Both the position numbers and the translations under genes were made by a program. The notes under the pieces were generated by a model. It did not search any database. It was not told the origin of the DNA and saw only the letters and a list, made by a program, of their open reading frames with translations. Shown in pieces: positions 14,704-22,556 of a stretch of 64,000 nucleotides of DNA (the first letter of the stretch is position 1; each line of letters begins with the position of its first letter). The stretch comes from Escherichia coli 042. GTDB taxonomy: Bacteria; Pseudomonadota; Gammaproteobacteria; Enterobacterales; Enterobacteriaceae. The stretch lies in NCBI RefSeq assembly GCF_000027125.1, contig NC_017626.1. One strand, written 5' to 3'.

Positions 14704-17676
14704 TTACCAGTGCACTCCAATGGTGAGAAACGCGTTGTTGCGCTCTCCGTTACGTTGATTAATTGCCTTAAAGGTATGTTGATACTCGACGCCGAGACTG
14801 ACTTTGTGCGGCCAGGCGTCGTAGTGCGTCTCGCCGGTCCAGATATTCCAGCGGACCCCGACACCGCCAAGCTGCGCGCCCTGAGTGCCTTTATCACGAT
14901 AACCGTTGTCCTGAACGTGAGCGTAAGGCTCAATAGTCTGTCCGTTCGCCACCTTCTGATGCCAGCTGACGCGATAATCTGCCGTCCACGCCTGAATATC
15001 CTGGCGGACATATTGCGCCGCATCGAGGTACAGGTTTTGGGCAAACCAGCCTGAACCGTTCGGGTGCCATTCATCGCTGTATTTGCCGCCATTAAAGAAT
15101 GAGGCGCTGGCGCGCAGCATGGTATCGGATGCGCCATTTTGCCCGTTCAGCGGCAACTGCTGTTCGACGGCGAGGAAAAAGATCTGATCGCGCAGCGGCT
15201 TCCAGCGCAGACCGGTGCCGGACATCGGATTTTTCACCGGCATCATCACCCCGTTTTCTCCGGTATCGGCAAATACACGGCTGTAAACCGAGAGCAGGTC
15301 GCCTTCCAGCAGCATATTGCGTCCGATGCGGTACTCGGCTTCCAGTTGCCCGTAGCTACGATAGCTTTTCCCTGGCGCTGCGCCGCCGACATTATTGTTA
15401 GCGGTACTCATCGCGCCGGAACGCAAGCCGATGGAAGAATCGAAACTGAACGTCCAGCGGCGACCGACCTCCTCATGCAGACGGCGGAAATTGAAGCGTT
15501 GCTGATTTTGCTCTGGGGTCAGTGGGGTTATCAGCGCCTGATTATCAATGTCATCAATCACCAGCCGGGCGTAGTGCTGCGTCGCAGGCATGTCATCCAG
15601 ACGCTGGTTCACGTAGGCCAGTTGTCGGATAAGTGCCGGATCGTCCGGTAGCCCTTTATGCGCCTGTTCGAGCATTTCCCGCGACTGTGCGATATCACCG
15701 CTATCCCACAAGGCGTAACCGAGCGCTGCCTGGGTGTTGCTATTATTCGGCTCCAGTTCCAGCGCGGCGCGCAAATCACTCACTGCCGCTGGGACATTAT
15801 GACGTTGGCGATAAATTGTCGCCCGCGCAACGTAAGCGTTGGCAGAAGGCGCAATATTGATTGAGCGCGTGAGATCGTTCAGTGCGAGTTCCGGCTGACC
15901 AGGAATGTAACGTTGCGCATGCAGCCACCAGTAGAGGGCATTGTTTCCCAGCCCACGTTGTTCTGCCTGCTGAAGCCAGCGATCGCGAGCCGCACCATTT
16001 CCTGCCGCCTGGGCGGTATTGGCAGCAGCAAGCAGATCCTCATTGCTCATGTCGTGAAGACTGATTTTCTGCCAGGCCGCCAGTGCGGTGGCGTAGTCCT
16101 CAACCTGATACGCTTGATAGGCTACCGCACGATGTTGCCAGGCGTTCGGTTGTCGTTGTTCGGCCTGAAGCCATGCATACAACGCCACACCGGGTAGCGT
16201 GTCCCGATAACACTTTGCCAGACGGTTCCAGGCGGCGGCATCGTAGGAAGGCGACATATCGCCCAGCAAGCGAACTATTGCCGGGCAATTATCTGCAATA
16301 CCCGGCAACTGACTTTGCCACTGACGTTGCTCCGCCAGCGGTAAGGGTTTCGATAAAATCGCCACCTTCGCCGGCGTTGCCAGGTAAGGATGACTTTCCA
16401 GCAGAGACGCCAGTCGCGCCATTAAAGTCTGGCTGACACGCGCATCGCCCTGGAAAGGATAGCGTTGCAGCAATAAATCGGCAGCTTCGCGTGACTGCTC
16501 GTTCTGCATCAGTTGCCAGGTCAGTTGATCCAGGCGGGTAAGATTTGCCGGTTCTTGCTGATACAGCAATCGTGCCAGACGCAGAGCTTCAGCCTTGTTA
16601 TGGGTCGCTACGCTAACGGTATAACGCTCCTCAAGCATTTCATTGGCGGGGAGGGTGGCGAGCAGTTTTTGCGCTGCGTCGTACTGACCTTCTTTTAACA
16701 GCACCGGTAGCGTCGCGCCAACAACATACTGGCGGTTGTCGGCAAACTGTACCGTATAATTCGCCAACGCCTGAACGGGGTTGCCGCTGTATTTAGATAA
16801 CAGATAGAGCCAACTTTTCTCTTGTGCGTCCGTGGTAAATAGCGGAGTATTTTCAATGAGATAACGCTGGAGGCGTGCTTTTTCGTCACGATAAGCCAGC
16901 GCGGTCGCGTAAGTAATATATGACTGCGGATCGGTGAAGATCCCCTGTGATTGCAGCGCCAGGATCCGATCGTCCAGCTGCCCGGCAAGAAGCACATCAA
17001 ACCACTGGCGGCGTTCTGCCGCGCTTAATGTGTTCTGCTGGCGTGCTTCATTGTATAGCGTATCTGCCTGGGACCATTGCTTCAGGTAGATTGCCCGTTG
17101 CAGCAGATCGGTTCGCAGCGTTTTTCCTTCCGGCGATGCAGCAAACGTCGCATCGTTCAGTTGCGCTCTGGCGACAGGTAATTGTGCCAGCCGCAGGGCA
17201 TTCTGCCCAACTTCACTGCGACAACGCAGGGTCGGCGCAGCATCGCACGCTTTTTGCTGGGCAAGCAGTTCTTCAACTGTCGTAACGCTTTTCACTTCAA
17301 CTGGAATAGCCGCCAGACTGCGCTCAAGTCGGGCATCTCCTGGGTGACGTTTCAGTTGATCCTCAAGCAACAGCCGCGCCCGGTCATCATGACCAAAATA
17401 GCGATAGGCTTCCGCAAGGTATAAAGCCAGCGGAATATTATCCGGCACCTGCTGGTGTATATATTCAAATTCGCGGATGGCGGTTGCTTCGTCGTTATTT
17501 TTCTGTGCCTTCAGCGCCTTATCGAGACGGGGATAAATAACAAAATGGCGATAATCGCTCAGCCCCAGCTCTTCTGCGCTGGTGCCGATATTGTCTGCGA
17601 GTGCGCTGGTACTCAATAAAGACGTCAGCAGTAAACCAGACCATCCGATGACGCGATTAAGGTTATTCTCCTTCAT
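14704..17676 (-). CDS. nfrA: outer membrane TPR-repeat protein NfrA (phage N4 adsorption protein A)
   Basis: ORF 14704..17697; likely start MKENNLNRVIGWSGLLL (990 aa); TPR-rich N-terminal part and beta-rich C-terminus ending in F/W. Confidence 0.85.
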   Translation of the reverse strand: MKENNLNRVIGWSGLLLTSLLSTSALADNIGTSAEELGLSDYRHFVIYPRLDKALKAQKNNDEATAIREFEYIHQQVPDNIPLALYLAEAYRYFGHDDRARLLLEDQLKRHPGDARLERSLAAIPVEVKSVTTVEELLAQQKACDAAPTLRCRSEVGQNALRLAQLPVARAQLNDATFAASPEGKTLRTDLLQRAIYLKQWSQADTLYNEARQQNTLSAAERRQWFDVLLAGQLDDRILALQSQGIFTDPQSYITYATALAYRDEKARLQRYLIENTPLFTTDAQEKSWLYLLSKYSGNPVQALANYTVQFADNRQYVVGATLPVLLKEGQYDAAQKLLATLPANEMLEERYTVSVATHNKAEALRLARLLYQQEPANLTRLDQLTWQLMQNEQSREAADLLLQRYPFQGDARVSQTLMARLASLLESHPYLATPAKVAILSKPLPLAEQRQWQSQLPGIADNCPAIVRLLGDMSPSYDAAAWNRLAKCYRDTLPGVALYAWLQAEQRQPNAWQHRAVAYQAYQVEDYATALAAWQKISLHDMSNEDLLAAANTAQAAGNGAARDRWLQQAEQRGLGNNALYWWLHAQRYIPGQPELALNDLTRSINIAPSANAYVARATIYRQRHNVPAAVSDLRAALELEPNNSNTQAALGYALWDSGDIAQSREMLEQAHKGLPDDPALIRQLAYVNQRLDDMPATQHYARLVIDDIDNQALITPLTPEQNQQRFNFRRLHEEVGRRWTFSFDSSIGLRSGAMSTANNNVGGAAPGKSYRSYGQLEAEYRIGRNMLLEGDLLSVYSRVFADTGENGVMMPVKNPMSGTGLRWKPLRDQIFFLAVEQQLPLNGQNGASDTMLRASASFFNGGKYSDEWHPNGSGWFAQNLYLDAAQYVRQDIQAWTADYRVSWHQKVANGQTIEPYAHVQDNGYRDKGTQGAQLGGVGVRWNIWTGETHYDAWPHKVSLGVEYQHTFKAINQRNGERNNAFLTIGVHW

Positions 17677-19900
17677 TTTCGGACTCCAGTTGCGCAACCT
17701 GTTCTGTGTTTAAACCTGCTTTGAGTAATAGTGATTGCATCGAAACTTGTAATTCGCGTTGAATTGTCAGGACGCGATCCAACGTTTCCTGGCTGATAAC
17801 GCCTTCGGTGACCAAAAACTTGCCGAGCGGCAGAGAACTGCGTTCATGGCGCAATAACAACACGTTAATTGCTGAACGATTAATATGACCGAGCGTGGTC
17901 AGTATTTCGGCGAACAGGAACTGATGCGGCACATATTGCCGCCAGATTTCACCGGCCTGCTGTTCCGTGAGCCACTGATGCTGAACCGCATTGTACAACA
18001 TTGCCCGCGGATCGTGACCGCGTCGGCGCGCATACCAGTGGCGTAACCCCGTGACAATTTGTCCCCGCAGAACAATGACGTAACGCACTTTGCGTCCGAC
18101 TTTACGCGTCAGGGCCGCCAGCGAAACCGGGTCAATACCATCTTCACTGCCGACAATTAACTCATCATTTTCCAGACGCAGCGGCAGCACTGCATAATGC
18201 AGCGCCACGGAGGCCGGCATTTCGGCAATCAGTGATGAAGGGATCTGCCAGGCGTCGATCGACTCCCACGCCACGCCGTTTTGCTCTGCCAGCGCCTGTG
18301 CCAGCTGTTCGGCGCTAATCAGCCCCTGCATCAGCATTGAACCGCCCAGGCGTAGACCTTCGACGCGATTACGCAGTGCTGTATCGAGTTGTTCTTCAGT
18401 GATGACCTGATTTTCCAGCAGGATTTGACCTAACGGACGCAACGAGCGGGTATCGCCAGTCACGCTGGGGAAGTCATGCGTTGTTTTATCCCACGCGACA
18501 CGACGTGGATCGCCGTGTTGAAGTACCTGTTTTAACGCGCGCCAGTTGGCCATGAAGTTAATCAGGTTGCCCCAGAAAAGACGCAGGACAGATAGCAGCC
18601 CCTGCGTCAGGCCGTAGTAGCCAGTAACGAAAATCACCCGCTGCACGATGCGGTTAATCATCAAGCCAAAGTTTAGCCACAGCAGAGTCATTAACCATGC
18701 GCTGCCGCTGAAAATAGAAAGGAAATGCCAGGCATCGGGCCACAAACTTTCATACGCCAGCAACAGCAAAAGCTGGATCATCACCAGCATCGCGAGGAAG
18801 CTGACAAAGTTACTGATTGCCCCTTTGCGGTCGCGCCAGAGAAAGTAGTTCAGCGTCAGACTGGAGGTCCATTTGTGGGTTTTAAAGCCCTGGAAAACAA
18901 TGCCGATGATCCAGCGAGATTTTTGTCGAACCGCAGTCGAAAAGGTATCGGGGAAATATTCGCGCACGCAGATCATGTTTGACGTCCGCGCGTGCTGTAA
19001 AAATTTACGCTGCTCGCGTTCTTTGGCTTCGTCCACCACCGGAAAACGGACAAAAATTTCCGTCATACCTTTTTCTTTCAGGCGGAAACCAATGTCGTAA
19101 TCTTCAGTAAGACTCTGCACGTCGAAAGCAATACCATCACCGTCAGCTAACAGTGCGGTCACGGCGCGGCGGCTGAAACAAGTACCGACGCCTGCGCTGG
19201 GCACCTGTCCGGCGAGGGCTTCACGCACCGGAACATCTTTGCCATGCAGTTCTGAAAACTCATCAATGTAAGTCATGCTGGTGAAGTGCGTCCATTCGCG
19301 TTCGAATGGGTATACCGGGATCTGAATCAGATCTTTACGCTCGACCAGATAGTTGAACAGACGCAATTCCATCGGTGAAATTACGTCTTCGGCGTCATGC
19401 AGAATAAAACCAGCAAAAGCGAAATTGGCGCTACGCTCAAACTGGGTGATGGCGTCCAGCACGTTGTTCAGGCAGTCGGCTTTGCTGGTGGGGCCAGGAC
19501 GCGCGCAGACTACCTTATGCACGTTTGGGAAGCGAGCGCACACTTCGTCAACATCACGCTGAGTATCGGGGTCGTTGGGGTAGGTGCCAACAAAGATATG
19601 ATAGTTTTCATAGTCGAGCGTGGTCGCCGCCAGCTCGGCCATATTGCCGATGACGCCCGTTTCATTCCACGCCGGAACCATAATCGCTAACGGTTTTTCA
19701 TCTGGTTTATACAGTTCGCGGTAACTCATTCGCGGGTAGCGGCGATAAACACTCAACTTGCGTTTAATGCGGCGTACCCAGTAGACGACATCAATAAAAA
19801 AATCGTCCAGCCCGCTGATGAACATGATGACCGCTAACGTTATCGCGATTACTTTTAAGCCGTAGAGCCAGGTAGCAAAAACATCAAGAAGCCAGTCCAC
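17663..19900 (-). CDS. nfrB: inner membrane glycosyltransferase NfrB (phage N4 adsorption protein B)
   Basis: 745 aa ORF, family-2 glycosyltransferase-like N-terminal region with TM segments; overlaps nfrA start. Confidence 0.9.
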   Translation of the reverse strand: MDWLLDVFATWLYGLKVIAITLAVIMFISGLDDFFIDVVYWVRRIKRKLSVYRRYPRMSYRELYKPDEKPLAIMVPAWNETGVIGNMAELAATTLDYENYHIFVGTYPNDPDTQRDVDEVCARFPNVHKVVCARPGPTSKADCLNNVLDAITQFERSANFAFAGFILHDAEDVISPMELRLFNYLVERKDLIQIPVYPFEREWTHFTSMTYIDEFSELHGKDVPVREALAGQVPSAGVGTCFSRRAVTALLADGDGIAFDVQSLTEDYDIGFRLKEKGMTEIFVRFPVVDEAKEREQRKFLQHARTSNMICVREYFPDTFSTAVRQKSRWIIGIVFQGFKTHKWTSSLTLNYFLWRDRKGAISNFVSFLAMLVMIQLLLLLAYESLWPDAWHFLSIFSGSAWLMTLLWLNFGLMINRIVQRVIFVTGYYGLTQGLLSVLRLFWGNLINFMANWRALKQVLQHGDPRRVAWDKTTHDFPSVTGDTRSLRPLGQILLENQVITEEQLDTALRNRVEGLRLGGSMLMQGLISAEQLAQALAEQNGVAWESIDAWQIPSSLIAEMPASVALHYAVLPLRLENDELIVGSEDGIDPVSLAALTRKVGRKVRYVIVLRGQIVTGLRHWYARRRGHDPRAMLYNAVQHQWLTEQQAGEIWRQYVPHQFLFAEILTTLGHINRSAINVLLLRHERSSLPLGKFLVTEGVISQETLDRVLTIQRELQVSMQSLLLKAGLNTEQVAQLESENEGE

Positions 19901-20236: not shown

Positions 20237-20773
20237 TTATTTAAGTTTAATATTCAACCAGGAAATAAAGAACGTTAAAATAACAAAGGAAAAAACAATC
20301 AAAGAGACATTCCTGAAAAATACGTGCTCATAAAAAAGATAAAAAACGTACAAAATTGGGCACGCAACTTTCAGGACGTTTATATGTTTAGAATTCTCTT
20401 TATCTTTAAAGTTAAAATTACATAAAAATATAAAGAAATATGAAAGCATGGCTGAAAACATCATTGATAAGGCGCGATATGGCAGTCCTGAATTAAAGGT
20501 TTCGACTCCTAATAATATTGTCGATAGCGTTGCAATTATAATTGCCACTTTTTTACTAGAGGTGAAAGTAACGACAAAAAATATCAATGATATAAATAAG
20601 AAAGAAAAAAATATGTAAATATTTGTTGATATATGTACTTTATGAGGAACTGTAAAATAGGTATAACTGATTGTAATTATGATGGTAATTATTCTGTATA
20701 GCATGCATGCTAACAGGCCAATCAGTAGTTTGTTCGCAAATTTATAAGGGGATTCGCTATTGGTTGATTGCAT
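20237..20773 (-). CDS. hypothetical multi-pass membrane protein (low GC, island-borne)
   Basis: 178 aa ORF dominated by I/L/F/V stretches consistent with ~5 TM helices; strongly AT-rich codon usage unlike flanking core genes. Confidence 0.6.
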   Translation of the reverse strand: MQSTNSESPYKFANKLLIGLLACMLYRIITIIITISYTYFTVPHKVHISTNIYIFFSFLFISLIFFVVTFTSSKKVAIIIATLSTILLGVETFNSGLPYRALSMMFSAMLSYFFIFLCNFNFKDKENSKHINVLKVACPILYVFYLFYEHVFFRNVSLIVFSFVILTFFISWLNIKLK

Positions 20774-20837
20774 GGTTATTATGCTCTTGAATTGTGTATT
20801 TTATTGGAATGTTTCTTGGTTAACTAAAACAATGCAT

Positions 20838-21266
20838 TTAATAGGTGGTGGTGTAAATATCAATGTCATACTCATTATCACAGACTACTATTACTCTACG
20901 AGTTATGTCAAAAAATAACGTTAAATCATAGGTTCCCTGTTCTCTGAAAATACTCTGCGCAAATGACGTGAAATTATTCCCATTTATAACTATTTTTACT
21001 TTACCTTCATAGATAAGCCAGCAACGAAAACATTCAGCTGTACCAGATAATGTCACTATCTGACTGATTAGAAGATTTATATTTACCGGATGAGGTAAAA
21101 AAAGTCTGTCGTTGAGGCAATCAATATTATGTGTTTGATGAAACTCTTTTCTCATTAATGAAGAGTTATCATATAGCAGGGTTATACTAAACGAGTCAAT
21201 TCCGTCAAGCTTTTGCATAAATTTGTTTGCTTTATAAATAAGCAACTTTGCTTGTGTTTTTGTCAT
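20838..21266 (-). CDS. hypothetical protein (island-borne, candidate orphan immunity protein)
   Basis: 142 aa ORF, AT-rich, tightly spaced with neighbours on the same strand. Confidence 0.5.
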   Translation of the reverse strand: MTKTQAKLLIYKANKFMQKLDGIDSFSITLLYDNSSLMRKEFHQTHNIDCLNDRLFLPHPVNINLLISQIVTLSGTAECFRCWLIYEGKVKIVINGNNFTSFAQSIFREQGTYDLTLFFDITRRVIVVCDNEYDIDIYTTTY

Positions 21267-21293
21267 GATGGTGATCTTTTATGCAAGGGGGAA

Positions 21294-21740
21294 TTATTGG
21301 AATTCAAATGTTTTATATTCCTCTGTAATCATCTTTAAACTTAACATAGCCATGTCTCGGGTATCTTCATCATCAGATTGTAGAGAAATATTTAATCCTT
21401 TAATTAAGGTGTTATCGGGAAAAGCCATTGCCAATAATGTATACCAACATCGGACACTTTTTATTGTCAGAGGATTTTCCAGTATGTTGGCGATATTTGA
21501 AGCTATAATGTTTTTATCACACTTGTACAAAAAATCTTCGACCAACTGATATACACCGAAGCCATCACCTTCCCCAAACGATTGTAAAAATAACGGTATG
21601 GCTTCTTCAGCAGGATTTGCAGAAAAATAAAGCCTTACATTGTTATATTTATTGATAAGTTCCTGAGTGATGTCATAATCATTTGGCATAGGTTGGTTTA
21701 GAGCAAGGAATGCTAATGCTTCTTTTTTAGTCATATTCAT
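21294..21740 (-). CDS. hypothetical protein (island-borne, candidate orphan immunity protein)
   Basis: 148 aa ORF, AT-rich, 27 bp from upstream and downstream ORFs. Confidence 0.5.
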   Translation of the reverse strand: MNMTKKEALAFLALNQPMPNDYDITQELINKYNNVRLYFSANPAEEAIPLFLQSFGEGDGFGVYQLVEDFLYKCDKNIIASNIANILENPLTIKSVRCWYTLLAMAFPDNTLIKGLNISLQSDDEDTRDMAMLSLKMITEEYKTFEFQ

Positions 21741-21767
21741 AATGGTTAATATTGCTTGCTGGAAGAA

Positions 21768-22313
21768 TTAAGGTAAAAATGGTTCATAGACAGAATTAAA
21801 TAGGAAGTCTTGTTTCCAGATAACTTTATCATGAAAAAGAGATTTGGCTTGATGCGTATAAAGATTATGAGGATAAATAGTTTCTCCACCATAAATGATG
21901 TTCTTTCCCGTTACACCGGAGAATTCATTGGCTATAATCTGTCGTTTAAGCCAGTGAATGACTTTACATAAGCATATTAATTTATCCTTAGAATCAGTTG
22001 TGTTAATTTCAGTAAGTTGTAAAATCTTTTCCCCATTATACTCAACTAAATGCCCCGGCTTTATTTCAATTCAACCACAATAACGATCAATGCTACTAAA
22101 CTTTATTCTTCTATTGTTAGGTTTAATGCTGGGCATAAGATAAATTCGATGTGCTACGGCAGGGATCTTTTCTGTTAAGACATTTAATTGCTTAGAGTAT
22201 TCATCTTGTAGTGTAAACCAAATTGAATGTAATTTGTATTTTGAGGCTACAATCGCGAGCCAATTAGACAGTTCCTCGTTCGTGCAAAAAACATTTATCC
22301 TGGCAGTTGCCAT
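21768..22313 (-). pseudogene. hypothetical gene interrupted by an in-frame TGA (80-codon ORF plus ~100 stop-free codons in the same frame)
   Basis: ORF 22071..22313 ends at TGA; manual translation of the same frame continues IEIKPGHLVEYNGEKILQ...SVYEPFLP to a TAA at ~21768 with no start codon, which is unlikely by chance in AT-rich DNA. Confidence 0.4.
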
Positions 22314-22346
22314 TCGTAATCCTTTTTATATAAGATTGTGTGAATG

Positions 22347-22556
22347 TCACCGAAACAACTTGATATGAATAAAATAGCTAAAGCGAAATGGATGACGTGT
22401 TACTAAAAAACCATTCTGAAAAGGAAGCCTGAATAAACGCGATGACGAAACTTCCACTCTCCATGTTTCATCAGAAAAATAACTAAATTCGATGTGGTTT
22501 TCATATAATCTCATTTCACGTAAGGTTCCGCTACCATAAGGGACCGCAATCAGGGA
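22347..22556 (-). pseudogene. short remnant ORF abutting the H-repeat end (possible truncated toxin-tip coding sequence)
   Basis: 78-aa ORF 22347..22583 whose 5' end lies inside the H-rpt terminus; the equivalent position next to H-rpt copy 2 holds a toxin-domain fragment. Confidence 0.25.

Follow-up and report, generated by a model that had tools for sequence, protein, structure and literature searches.

The minus-strand cluster at 20237-22313 of the analysed stretch of Escherichia coli 042 (contig NC_017626.1; the whole stretch of 64,000 nucleotides is referred to as the window) consists of four small genes, here named A, B, C and D starting from the most upstream one, and is located between the core gene nfrB and a copy of the insertion sequence ISEc1. 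It is concluded, with a probability of about 0.8, that this cluster is an orphan immunity array without toxin at a decayed Rhs/type VI secretion system (T6SS) effector locus. An orphan immunity array had already been suggested in an earlier note on this DNA, and for three of the four genes (B, C and D) evidence for it could now be obtained from the neighbourhoods of their relatives, in which homologs of B, C and D are found directly downstream of three different secreted toxins.

The cluster consists of genuine genes that are not recognised by profile libraries

The four tightly spaced open reading frames (ORFs) on the minus strand that were described in the earlier note could be confirmed, both in their coordinates and in the intergenic gaps of 27 bp (A-B), 27 bp (B-C) and 64 bp (C-D). 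The high AT content was likewise found, with a GC fraction of 0.30-0.35 over 20500-22500 compared to 0.47-0.58 in nfrA/nfrB. At this local composition, stop codons make up ∼7.5% of random codons and the probability of an open frame of at least 142 codons is ∼2e-5. The presence of four such long frames on one strand is therefore not due to chance.

No significant match was obtained for A, B and C in NCBIfam, PADLOC, PHROGs and Pfam, nor for D in NCBIfam, PADLOC and PHROGs. The only PADLOC match was that of D to a '2TM effector', which is very weak (E value of 0.36). Searches of the PDB with profiles of A, C and B returned nothing significant, no RNA family was identified with Rfam, and no match to defence, phage or housekeeping families was found in the profile libraries. 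The 142 aa and 148 aa products (C and B), which had not been recognised from the sequence, are thus not recognised by any public profile library either. Since no library recognised the proteins, their identification is based on the genomic neighbourhoods of their relatives.

B is linked to a conserved tip of polymorphic toxins

B is a helical protein of 148 aa with relatives in 19 clusters in Enterobacterales. A scan of species-representative genomes with the B alignment resulted in 29 loci, which belong to Enterobacterales, Gilliamella, Pseudomonas, Clostridium, Bacteroidota, Oscillospiraceae, Helicobacteraceae, Planctomycetota and Chloroflexota. Thirty loci were examined, and in 18 of them a toxin ORF ends at or overlaps the start of the B homolog (−22 to +79 nt, typically with an ATGA overlap). 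In an Rhs orphan array of Cronobacter, for example, the B homolog overlaps the stop codon of an Rhs fragment made up of RHS core, DPxGL motif and a tip of ∼120 aa.

The toxins linked to B share one conserved C-terminal domain of ∼120 aa (LAKxGEDLYVGTY...SGLNPTHTPHHAIQNA...GITIN.RKDLHELT...DLRKIL.NAGY...NRQL.ELIRQNK), which can be abbreviated to the motif GEDLYVGTY...HTPHHAIQNA...NRQL.ELIRQNK. This tip is carried by full-length Rhs proteins of 1452-1530 aa (loci L019, L022 and L029), by Rhs fragments, by Hint-type proteins (L036 and L043) and by a Clostridium protein of 1334 aa (L031). Examples of the tip next to B homologs are found at L019:5640-6004, L022, L029, L008:5420-5786 and 14 other loci. 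No match to the tip was found in Pfam, NCBIfam or the PDB. One tip that is attached to a variety of delivery modules and always has the same partner downstream is characteristic of a polymorphic toxin/immunity pair. Judged by its homologs, B belongs, as an orphan, to an immunity family that is cognate to this ∼120 aa polymorphic-toxin tip. It is regarded as an orphan because the gene upstream of B in the window is A and not a toxin gene. The ratios of nonsynonymous to synonymous substitution rates (dN/dS), which are reported for A, B and C and were determined pairwise versus orthologs, were 0.09-0.24 for B. In 22 E. coli genomes, a related toxin tip is found together with its immunity gene.

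A homolog of B was also observed in Hafnia alvei (L002:5311-8432), where it stands at the end of a row of six small same-strand ORFs that have no Pfam match and include two membrane proteins. This row adjoins a large autotransporter gene and may represent another orphan immunity array at an unrelated site.

C belongs to a family found behind an Rhs nuclease toxin

C is a cytoplasmic protein of 142 aa, for which only five clusters were found. All of these are from Escherichia, and all are orphans at the cusS-nfrB site or at a rearranged version of it. A more distant paralog could be identified by tblastn in E. coli 64A:C (L048:12516-12950; 33% identity, E value of 9e-22). This paralog overlaps by 11 nt the stop codon of a complete Rhs protein of 1298 aa, in the gene order VgrG, two small ORFs, the 1298 aa Rhs and the C paralog, and the C-terminal tip of this Rhs was identified as Tox-HNH-EHHH (PF15657, E value of 2.6e-9). 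The L048 locus is the one clear case of a toxin-adjacent member of the C family, the other members seen being orphans. A further C homolog is located in a small-ORF array of Gilliamella, which also contains a B homolog. The Rhs/C pair of L048 and the Gilliamella array indicate that C belongs to an Rhs-immunity family with an HNH-type nuclease tip as its known partner, and on the basis of this kinship the C gene of the window is classed as an orphan member of that family.

The dN/dS of C was 0.29-0.45. When C was compared with its counterpart at L013:9001-9429, which represents another E. coli lineage, residues 1-80 were strongly diverged and residues 81-142 were almost identical. This half-diverged, half-identical pattern points to a recombination breakpoint inside the gene.

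D is a membrane protein linked to a VgrG-associated effector

The ∼5 transmembrane helices that had been estimated for the 178 aa product D are close to the result of the hydropathy analysis, which yielded 5-6 transmembrane segments. A topology with six segments and with the N and C termini inside best fits the positive-inside rule for Lys/Arg. A full HMMER search with D resulted in eight representatives, and full-length relatives were found at 89%, 42% (P0034) and 33% (P0036) identity. An intact D allele of 176 aa is represented by P0032, so that D is intact both in the window and in P0032. In a codon-position test, the D frame and the antisense frame were indistinguishable, as their third positions are shared. 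That D is a real gene is therefore concluded from its distant full-length homologs and not from this test.

The genomic contexts of D were obtained from the representative search, and a scan of genome contigs with a narrower D alignment gave no confirmed relative. At L015, the C-terminal end of a VgrG, which shares 65% identity with a bona fide VgrG over 34 aa, is followed by a protein of 264 aa (L015:300-1094) and then by the D homolog, which overlaps the stop codon of the 264 aa gene by ∼20 nt. At L055-L058, a frameshifted copy of the 264 aa effector (62% identity over all 264 residues; L055:9229-10017 for the L055 copy) is located directly upstream of the D homolog, and this pair is flanked by vgrG and tssE in a complete T6SS cluster. 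At L016, an effector remnant, the D homolog and tssE follow each other. As at L015, the D homologs of L016 and L055-L058 overlap the effector or effector remnant at its 3' end by ∼20 nt. The effector had no match in Pfam or NCBIfam, and tblastn gave no match to it in the window. The location of D homologs directly after the effector in T6SS/VgrG loci indicates that D is the membrane immunity partner of a VgrG-linked effector, and D is assigned, by homology, as an orphan of this T6SS effector-immunity family and as a polytopic inner-membrane protein. The earlier idea that the membrane protein is an immunity protein against a membrane-targeting toxin is thus supported with respect to immunity by the overlap of D relatives with the effector stop codon, and the effector itself presumably acts at or across the inner membrane.

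Within the family of the 264 aa effector, a D-type multi-pass membrane protein is always the next gene. A second, partial copy of the effector was observed ∼600 bp further downstream at L055-L058.

A is an apparently recent pseudogene of a probable immunity gene

In A, 80 codons are followed by an in-frame TGA at 22071-22073 and then by 100 stop-free codons up to a TAA at 21768-21770, which agrees with the nonsense-interrupted ORF that had been described. A orthologs in E. albertii, Escherichia sp. and 5 or 6 other E. coli genomes encode Trp81 (TGG) at this position and an intact protein of 181 aa. Across 150 complete E. coli genomes, the 566 bp A region shows an identity of at least 99%, and a one-substitution variant of the window lineage, which was read directly, still contains the TGA. 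Since the A region is kept in ∼150 genomes and the orthologs have TGG, the TGA is a real, lineage-fixed G-to-A nonsense mutation. A sequencing error, for which resequencing had been proposed as a check, is ruled out by the recurrence of the TGA in complete genomes, and readthrough or selenocysteine insertion is ruled out by the Trp at that position in the orthologs.

The dN/dS of A was 0.13-0.20 in pairwise comparisons, indicating purifying selection on the intact protein. The values for the window allele (0.17-0.20) equal those among intact alleles, and the pseudogenisation therefore appears to be recent. An ENA metagenome protein cluster of 181 aa (P0020) is 99% identical to the A of the window and has Trp at position 81. 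Either this allele truly has TGG, or the gene was called with a genetic code in which TGA stands for Trp.

The A family comprises seven clusters and is restricted to Escherichia. In every genome seen, A is located among immunity-type genes at the Rhs locus, namely SMI1/KNR4, Imm57, B and CdiI_N. The gene orders include cusS, SMI1/KNR4, A, B; in E. albertii cusS, U, A, B, a toxin tip with CdiI_N, D; and in Escherichia sp. U, A, Imm57. By hhalign, no relationship of A to C, Imm57, SMI1/KNR4 or U was found. On the basis of its association with immunity genes only, A is probably an immunity gene. U is a gene of 151 aa that precedes A in full length in E. albertii and Escherichia sp. In the window it is reduced to the remnant U', which is cut by the ISEc1 insertion (ISEc1 end at ∼22551 in the blastn map), and the identical truncation is present in all 151 E. 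coli genomes that carry U'.

The array is assembled from independent cassettes

Of 5426 complete E. coli genomes, 151 contain the whole cluster in practically identical form, and the remaining ones share only 93-209 bp next to nfrB. By blastn mapping, an A-B module (window positions 22329-21308) and a C-D module (21285-19901) could be distinguished. Other Escherichia genomes have A-B, C-D or only one of the genes B, C and D at the nfrB-cusS site. E. albertii has D alone, with the boundary ∼30 nt upstream of the ATG of D, and E. fergusonii has C alone. In L011-L013, B is present alone with the last ∼55 nt of A, and a further small gene separates it from C-D. In L006 C and most of D are deleted. 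The cassettes are thus independent of one another, which argues against a single four-gene system. Furthermore, the synonymous divergence (dS) of A and B between E. coli lineages (versus L006, L013 and L017) is 0.20-0.36, and that of nfrB is 2-3 times lower (0.09-0.11). The array alleles therefore appear to be older than the backbone or to have been imported independently of it, which fits exchange by recombination.

A model for the function of the array

In the proposed model, each product would bind and neutralise one specific toxin domain that is delivered by neighbouring bacteria. B would act against the ∼120 aa tip of Rhs and other polymorphic toxins, and C against the HNH-EHHH-type nuclease tip of Rhs toxins. 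From the inner membrane, D would act against the ∼264 aa VgrG-borne T6SS effector and shield the membrane. A would probably be a fourth immunity gene, which is now inactivated by the TGG-to-TGA change in the lineage of the window. The array would be built and reshuffled cassette by cassette by recombination, deletion and ISEc1 activity and, where it is retained, it would be retained because resistance to the toxins of other strains is useful without the weapon. Consistent with an array of orphans, no toxin gene is found next to B, C or D in the window, as the ORFs upstream of them are A, B and C, respectively; the B-type and HNH-EHHH tips were not directly searched in the window. The array is presumably transcribed, and the diverged orphan copies may still bind and counteract incoming toxins and thereby protect the cell. 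The same island also contains Rhs fragments, a SUKH-3 gene, PAAR-like and HNH toxin-2 fragments and two ISEc1 copies.

Several observations weigh against an orphan immunity array. B of the window is 45-65% identical to its toxin-linked homologs and C is only 33% identical to its toxin-adjacent paralog. Because the copies have diverged in this way and immunity is usually highly specific, protection by the window copies is uncertain. When an active B-linked toxin was looked for within E. coli, the tip in the one genome inspected of the 22 that have a related tip turned out to be a fragment truncated by IS3. For A, no toxin neighbour was found in the seven clusters or in any context inspected. 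In other Escherichia lineages, D carries a frameshifting deletion of 7 nt or 10 nt, once together with a nonsense codon. With D frameshifted in several lineages and A broken in the window, the array is at least partly decaying and not uniformly maintained. A scan for promoters and terminators revealed nothing above the shuffled expectation, promoter-like sites being fewer than in the shuffles. Finally, AlphaFold2 models from shallow alignments had a mean predicted local distance difference test (pLDDT) score of 49 for A and 43 for C and were too poor for fold tests.

Alternative explanations

The main competing explanation, which is considered unlikely, is that the cluster is functionless, horizontally acquired AT-rich debris that has only so far not been deleted. 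The pseudogenisation of A, the cut of U by ISEc1, the frameshifts and nonsense codon in D elsewhere, the deletion in L006 and the restriction of the cluster to 151 of the 5426 genomes would all be expected from debris, and so would the absence of a promoter signal and the failure of the annotation pipeline to call A and D. However, the dN/dS values across Escherichia (0.09-0.24 for A and B, 0.29-0.45 for C) indicate long-term purifying selection without an adjacent toxin, and B, C and D are intact here, although the near-identity in 151 genomes may merely reflect recent common ancestry. Less probable still is a single, self-contained toxin-antitoxin or anti-phage defence operon, in which A or C would be the effector, B the neutraliser and D a membrane effector. 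The tight spacing on one strand and the weak PADLOC match of D are compatible with such an operon, as is the adjacency of A and B, which in this argument is always maintained with a 27-nt gap wherever A occurs. The small independent system that had been considered in the earlier note as an alternative is not supported, since neither PADLOC, PHROGs, NCBIfam nor Pfam gave a significant match and the genes occur in different combinations by genome (B is found where A is lacking, C and D each in the absence of the other, and A-B where C-D is missing). In addition, the toxins with which B, C and D are paired in other loci differ for each of the three, and although A is inactivated in this lineage, B, C and D have remained unchanged in 150 genomes.

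For A itself, it is conceivable, if not the favoured explanation, that it is unrelated cargo, such as a regulator or a mobile-element remnant, that hitch-hikes with B. For A, neither a toxin neighbour nor a fold or a known family could be identified, and its relatives are confined to Escherichia, as could be expected for cargo; on the other hand, A is embedded among SMI1/KNR4, Imm57, CdiI_N and B in every genome seen, and its size, AT-richness and purifying selection match those of its neighbours. An extension of the orphan immunity array is more doubtful: the cusS-nfrB interval might be a chromosomal 'immunity bank', in which cassettes against toxins of other Enterobacterales and of distant phyla are collected and kept under selection without the weapon, with A and U as founders of new immunity families and with the B-linked tip and the 264 aa effector as two new toxin families that would have new activities.

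Genomic setting and annotation

The coordinates of the cluster and of its flanking genes are summarised in Table 1. The nfrB-cusS interval is the conserved Rhs locus 4 of E. coli/Shigella (Jackson et al., 2009, Table 3, PMC2935791). The four-gene cluster thus forms the end of a vestigial Rhs locus on the side of nfrB.

Table 1. Genes and remnants in and around the immunity-type gene cluster (window coordinates).
Feature	Position	Strand	Description
nfrA	14704-17697	-	
nfrB	17663-19900	-	core gene; bounds the cluster on the side opposite to cusS
D	20237-20773	-	178 aa, intact ORF
C	20838-21266	-	142 aa, intact ORF
B	21294-21740	-	148 aa, intact ORF
A	21768-22313	-	pseudogene of a 181 aa protein; 80-codon ORF at 22071-22313
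U'	22347-22550	-	∼66-codon 3' remnant of a 151 aa gene; blastn map
ISEc1 (ISAs1-family, 'H-repeat') transposase gene	22561-23697	-	ORF, PGAP; bounds the cluster on the cusS side

In the RefSeq annotation, which was made with the NCBI annotation pipeline (PGAP), B and C are hypothetical proteins, A is not annotated and D is not called. In place of D, a plus-strand ORF of 56 aa (20448-20618), antisense to D, is present. The missed D, the antisense call and the lack of an annotation for the A pseudogene are probably a systematic mis-annotation in ∼150 genomes.

From ISEc1 toward cusS, an Rhs-repeat fragment, a short toxin-tip ORF, a SUKH-3 gene, a second ISEc1 copy, WD40-like, PAAR-like and 'HNH toxin-2' genes and cusS are found. 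The short ORF encodes 66 aa (24527-24727, minus strand) with a C-x-x-C motif at the end and lies downstream of an Rhs-repeat fragment, from which the fragment at 23776-24045 is separate, and directly upstream of the SUKH-3 immunity gene (24063-24524, minus strand). The short ORF and the SUKH-3 gene resemble an orphan toxin tip and the cognate immunity gene and are regarded as a candidate pair. The second ISEc1 copy (within 24712-26625) is interrupted by IS1, with insA/insB-like ORFs at 25219-25916. The same copy is intact in strain 118UI, and the IS1 insertion thus sets the strain of the window apart within its lineage. At 26865-31196 on the minus strand, two WD40/BNR-like genes of 346 aa, a PAAR-like gene, a hypothetical gene of 336 aa and a 99 aa 'HNH/endonuclease VII toxin-2' fragment were observed, the labels of which were taken from the annotation of the identical region in 118UI. 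These genes are further remnants of effector/immunity modules at the nfrB-cusS locus.

Comparison with known systems

Rhs/T6SS loci are well known to contain orphan immunity arrays, and orphan immunity genes shape the survival of strains under contact-dependent attack in the gut. The result presented here extends the catalogue of such arrays and leaves the understanding of these systems unchanged. What is new is that three 'hypothetical' families are given a context, that two toxin families are found which are absent from Pfam/NCBIfam/PDB, and that an annotation error is exposed.

For the 'orphan' toxin-tip/immunity modules that lie downstream of rhs genes in Enterobacteriaceae, a model of C-terminal displacement has been put forward (Jackson et al., 2009, PMC2935791); orphan rhs of Salmonella is the subject of PMC7043789. 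The cluster resembles these modules in its site (the nfrB-cusS locus 4), in the presence of ISEc1/H-repeat, Rhs fragments and small AT-rich downstream ORFs, and in the accumulation of displaced cassettes. In contrast to these modules, the region 20237-22313 has only immunity-type genes and neither an rhs core nor a toxin-tip fragment, and the D cassette derives from a non-Rhs, VgrG-linked effector.

Polytopic membrane immunity proteins of membrane-acting T6SS effectors are a known general class. Like these, D is a small multi-pass inner-membrane protein, and the genes of its relatives overlap the 3' end of a VgrG-linked effector gene. It differs from the class in that it has no sequence kinship to annotated families and in that its effector is only presumed to act at the membrane.

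The Pfam families SMI1/KNR4, Imm57 and CdiI_N are found in sister arrays of Escherichia. A, B, C and D differ from the SUKH/SMI1-KNR4, Imm57 and CdiI_N families in that they match no existing Pfam or NCBIfam immunity model (D versus NCBIfam only). The members of these known families are small proteins that are encoded directly 3' of variable toxin tips, they occur across phyla, and their partner tip is found on different carriers, a pattern into which B fits exactly.

Orphan immunity arrays and 'acquired interbacterial defence' islands are known in Bacteroidales and Vibrio cholerae, and related poly-immunity clusters have also been described. Compared to these islands, the cluster has no dedicated integrase or recombinase and no evidence for mobility as a unit, and it is fixed at one Rhs locus. 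As in these islands, immunity genes against toxins that the host does not encode are arranged in tandem, are reshuffled between strains and are decayed to a variable extent.

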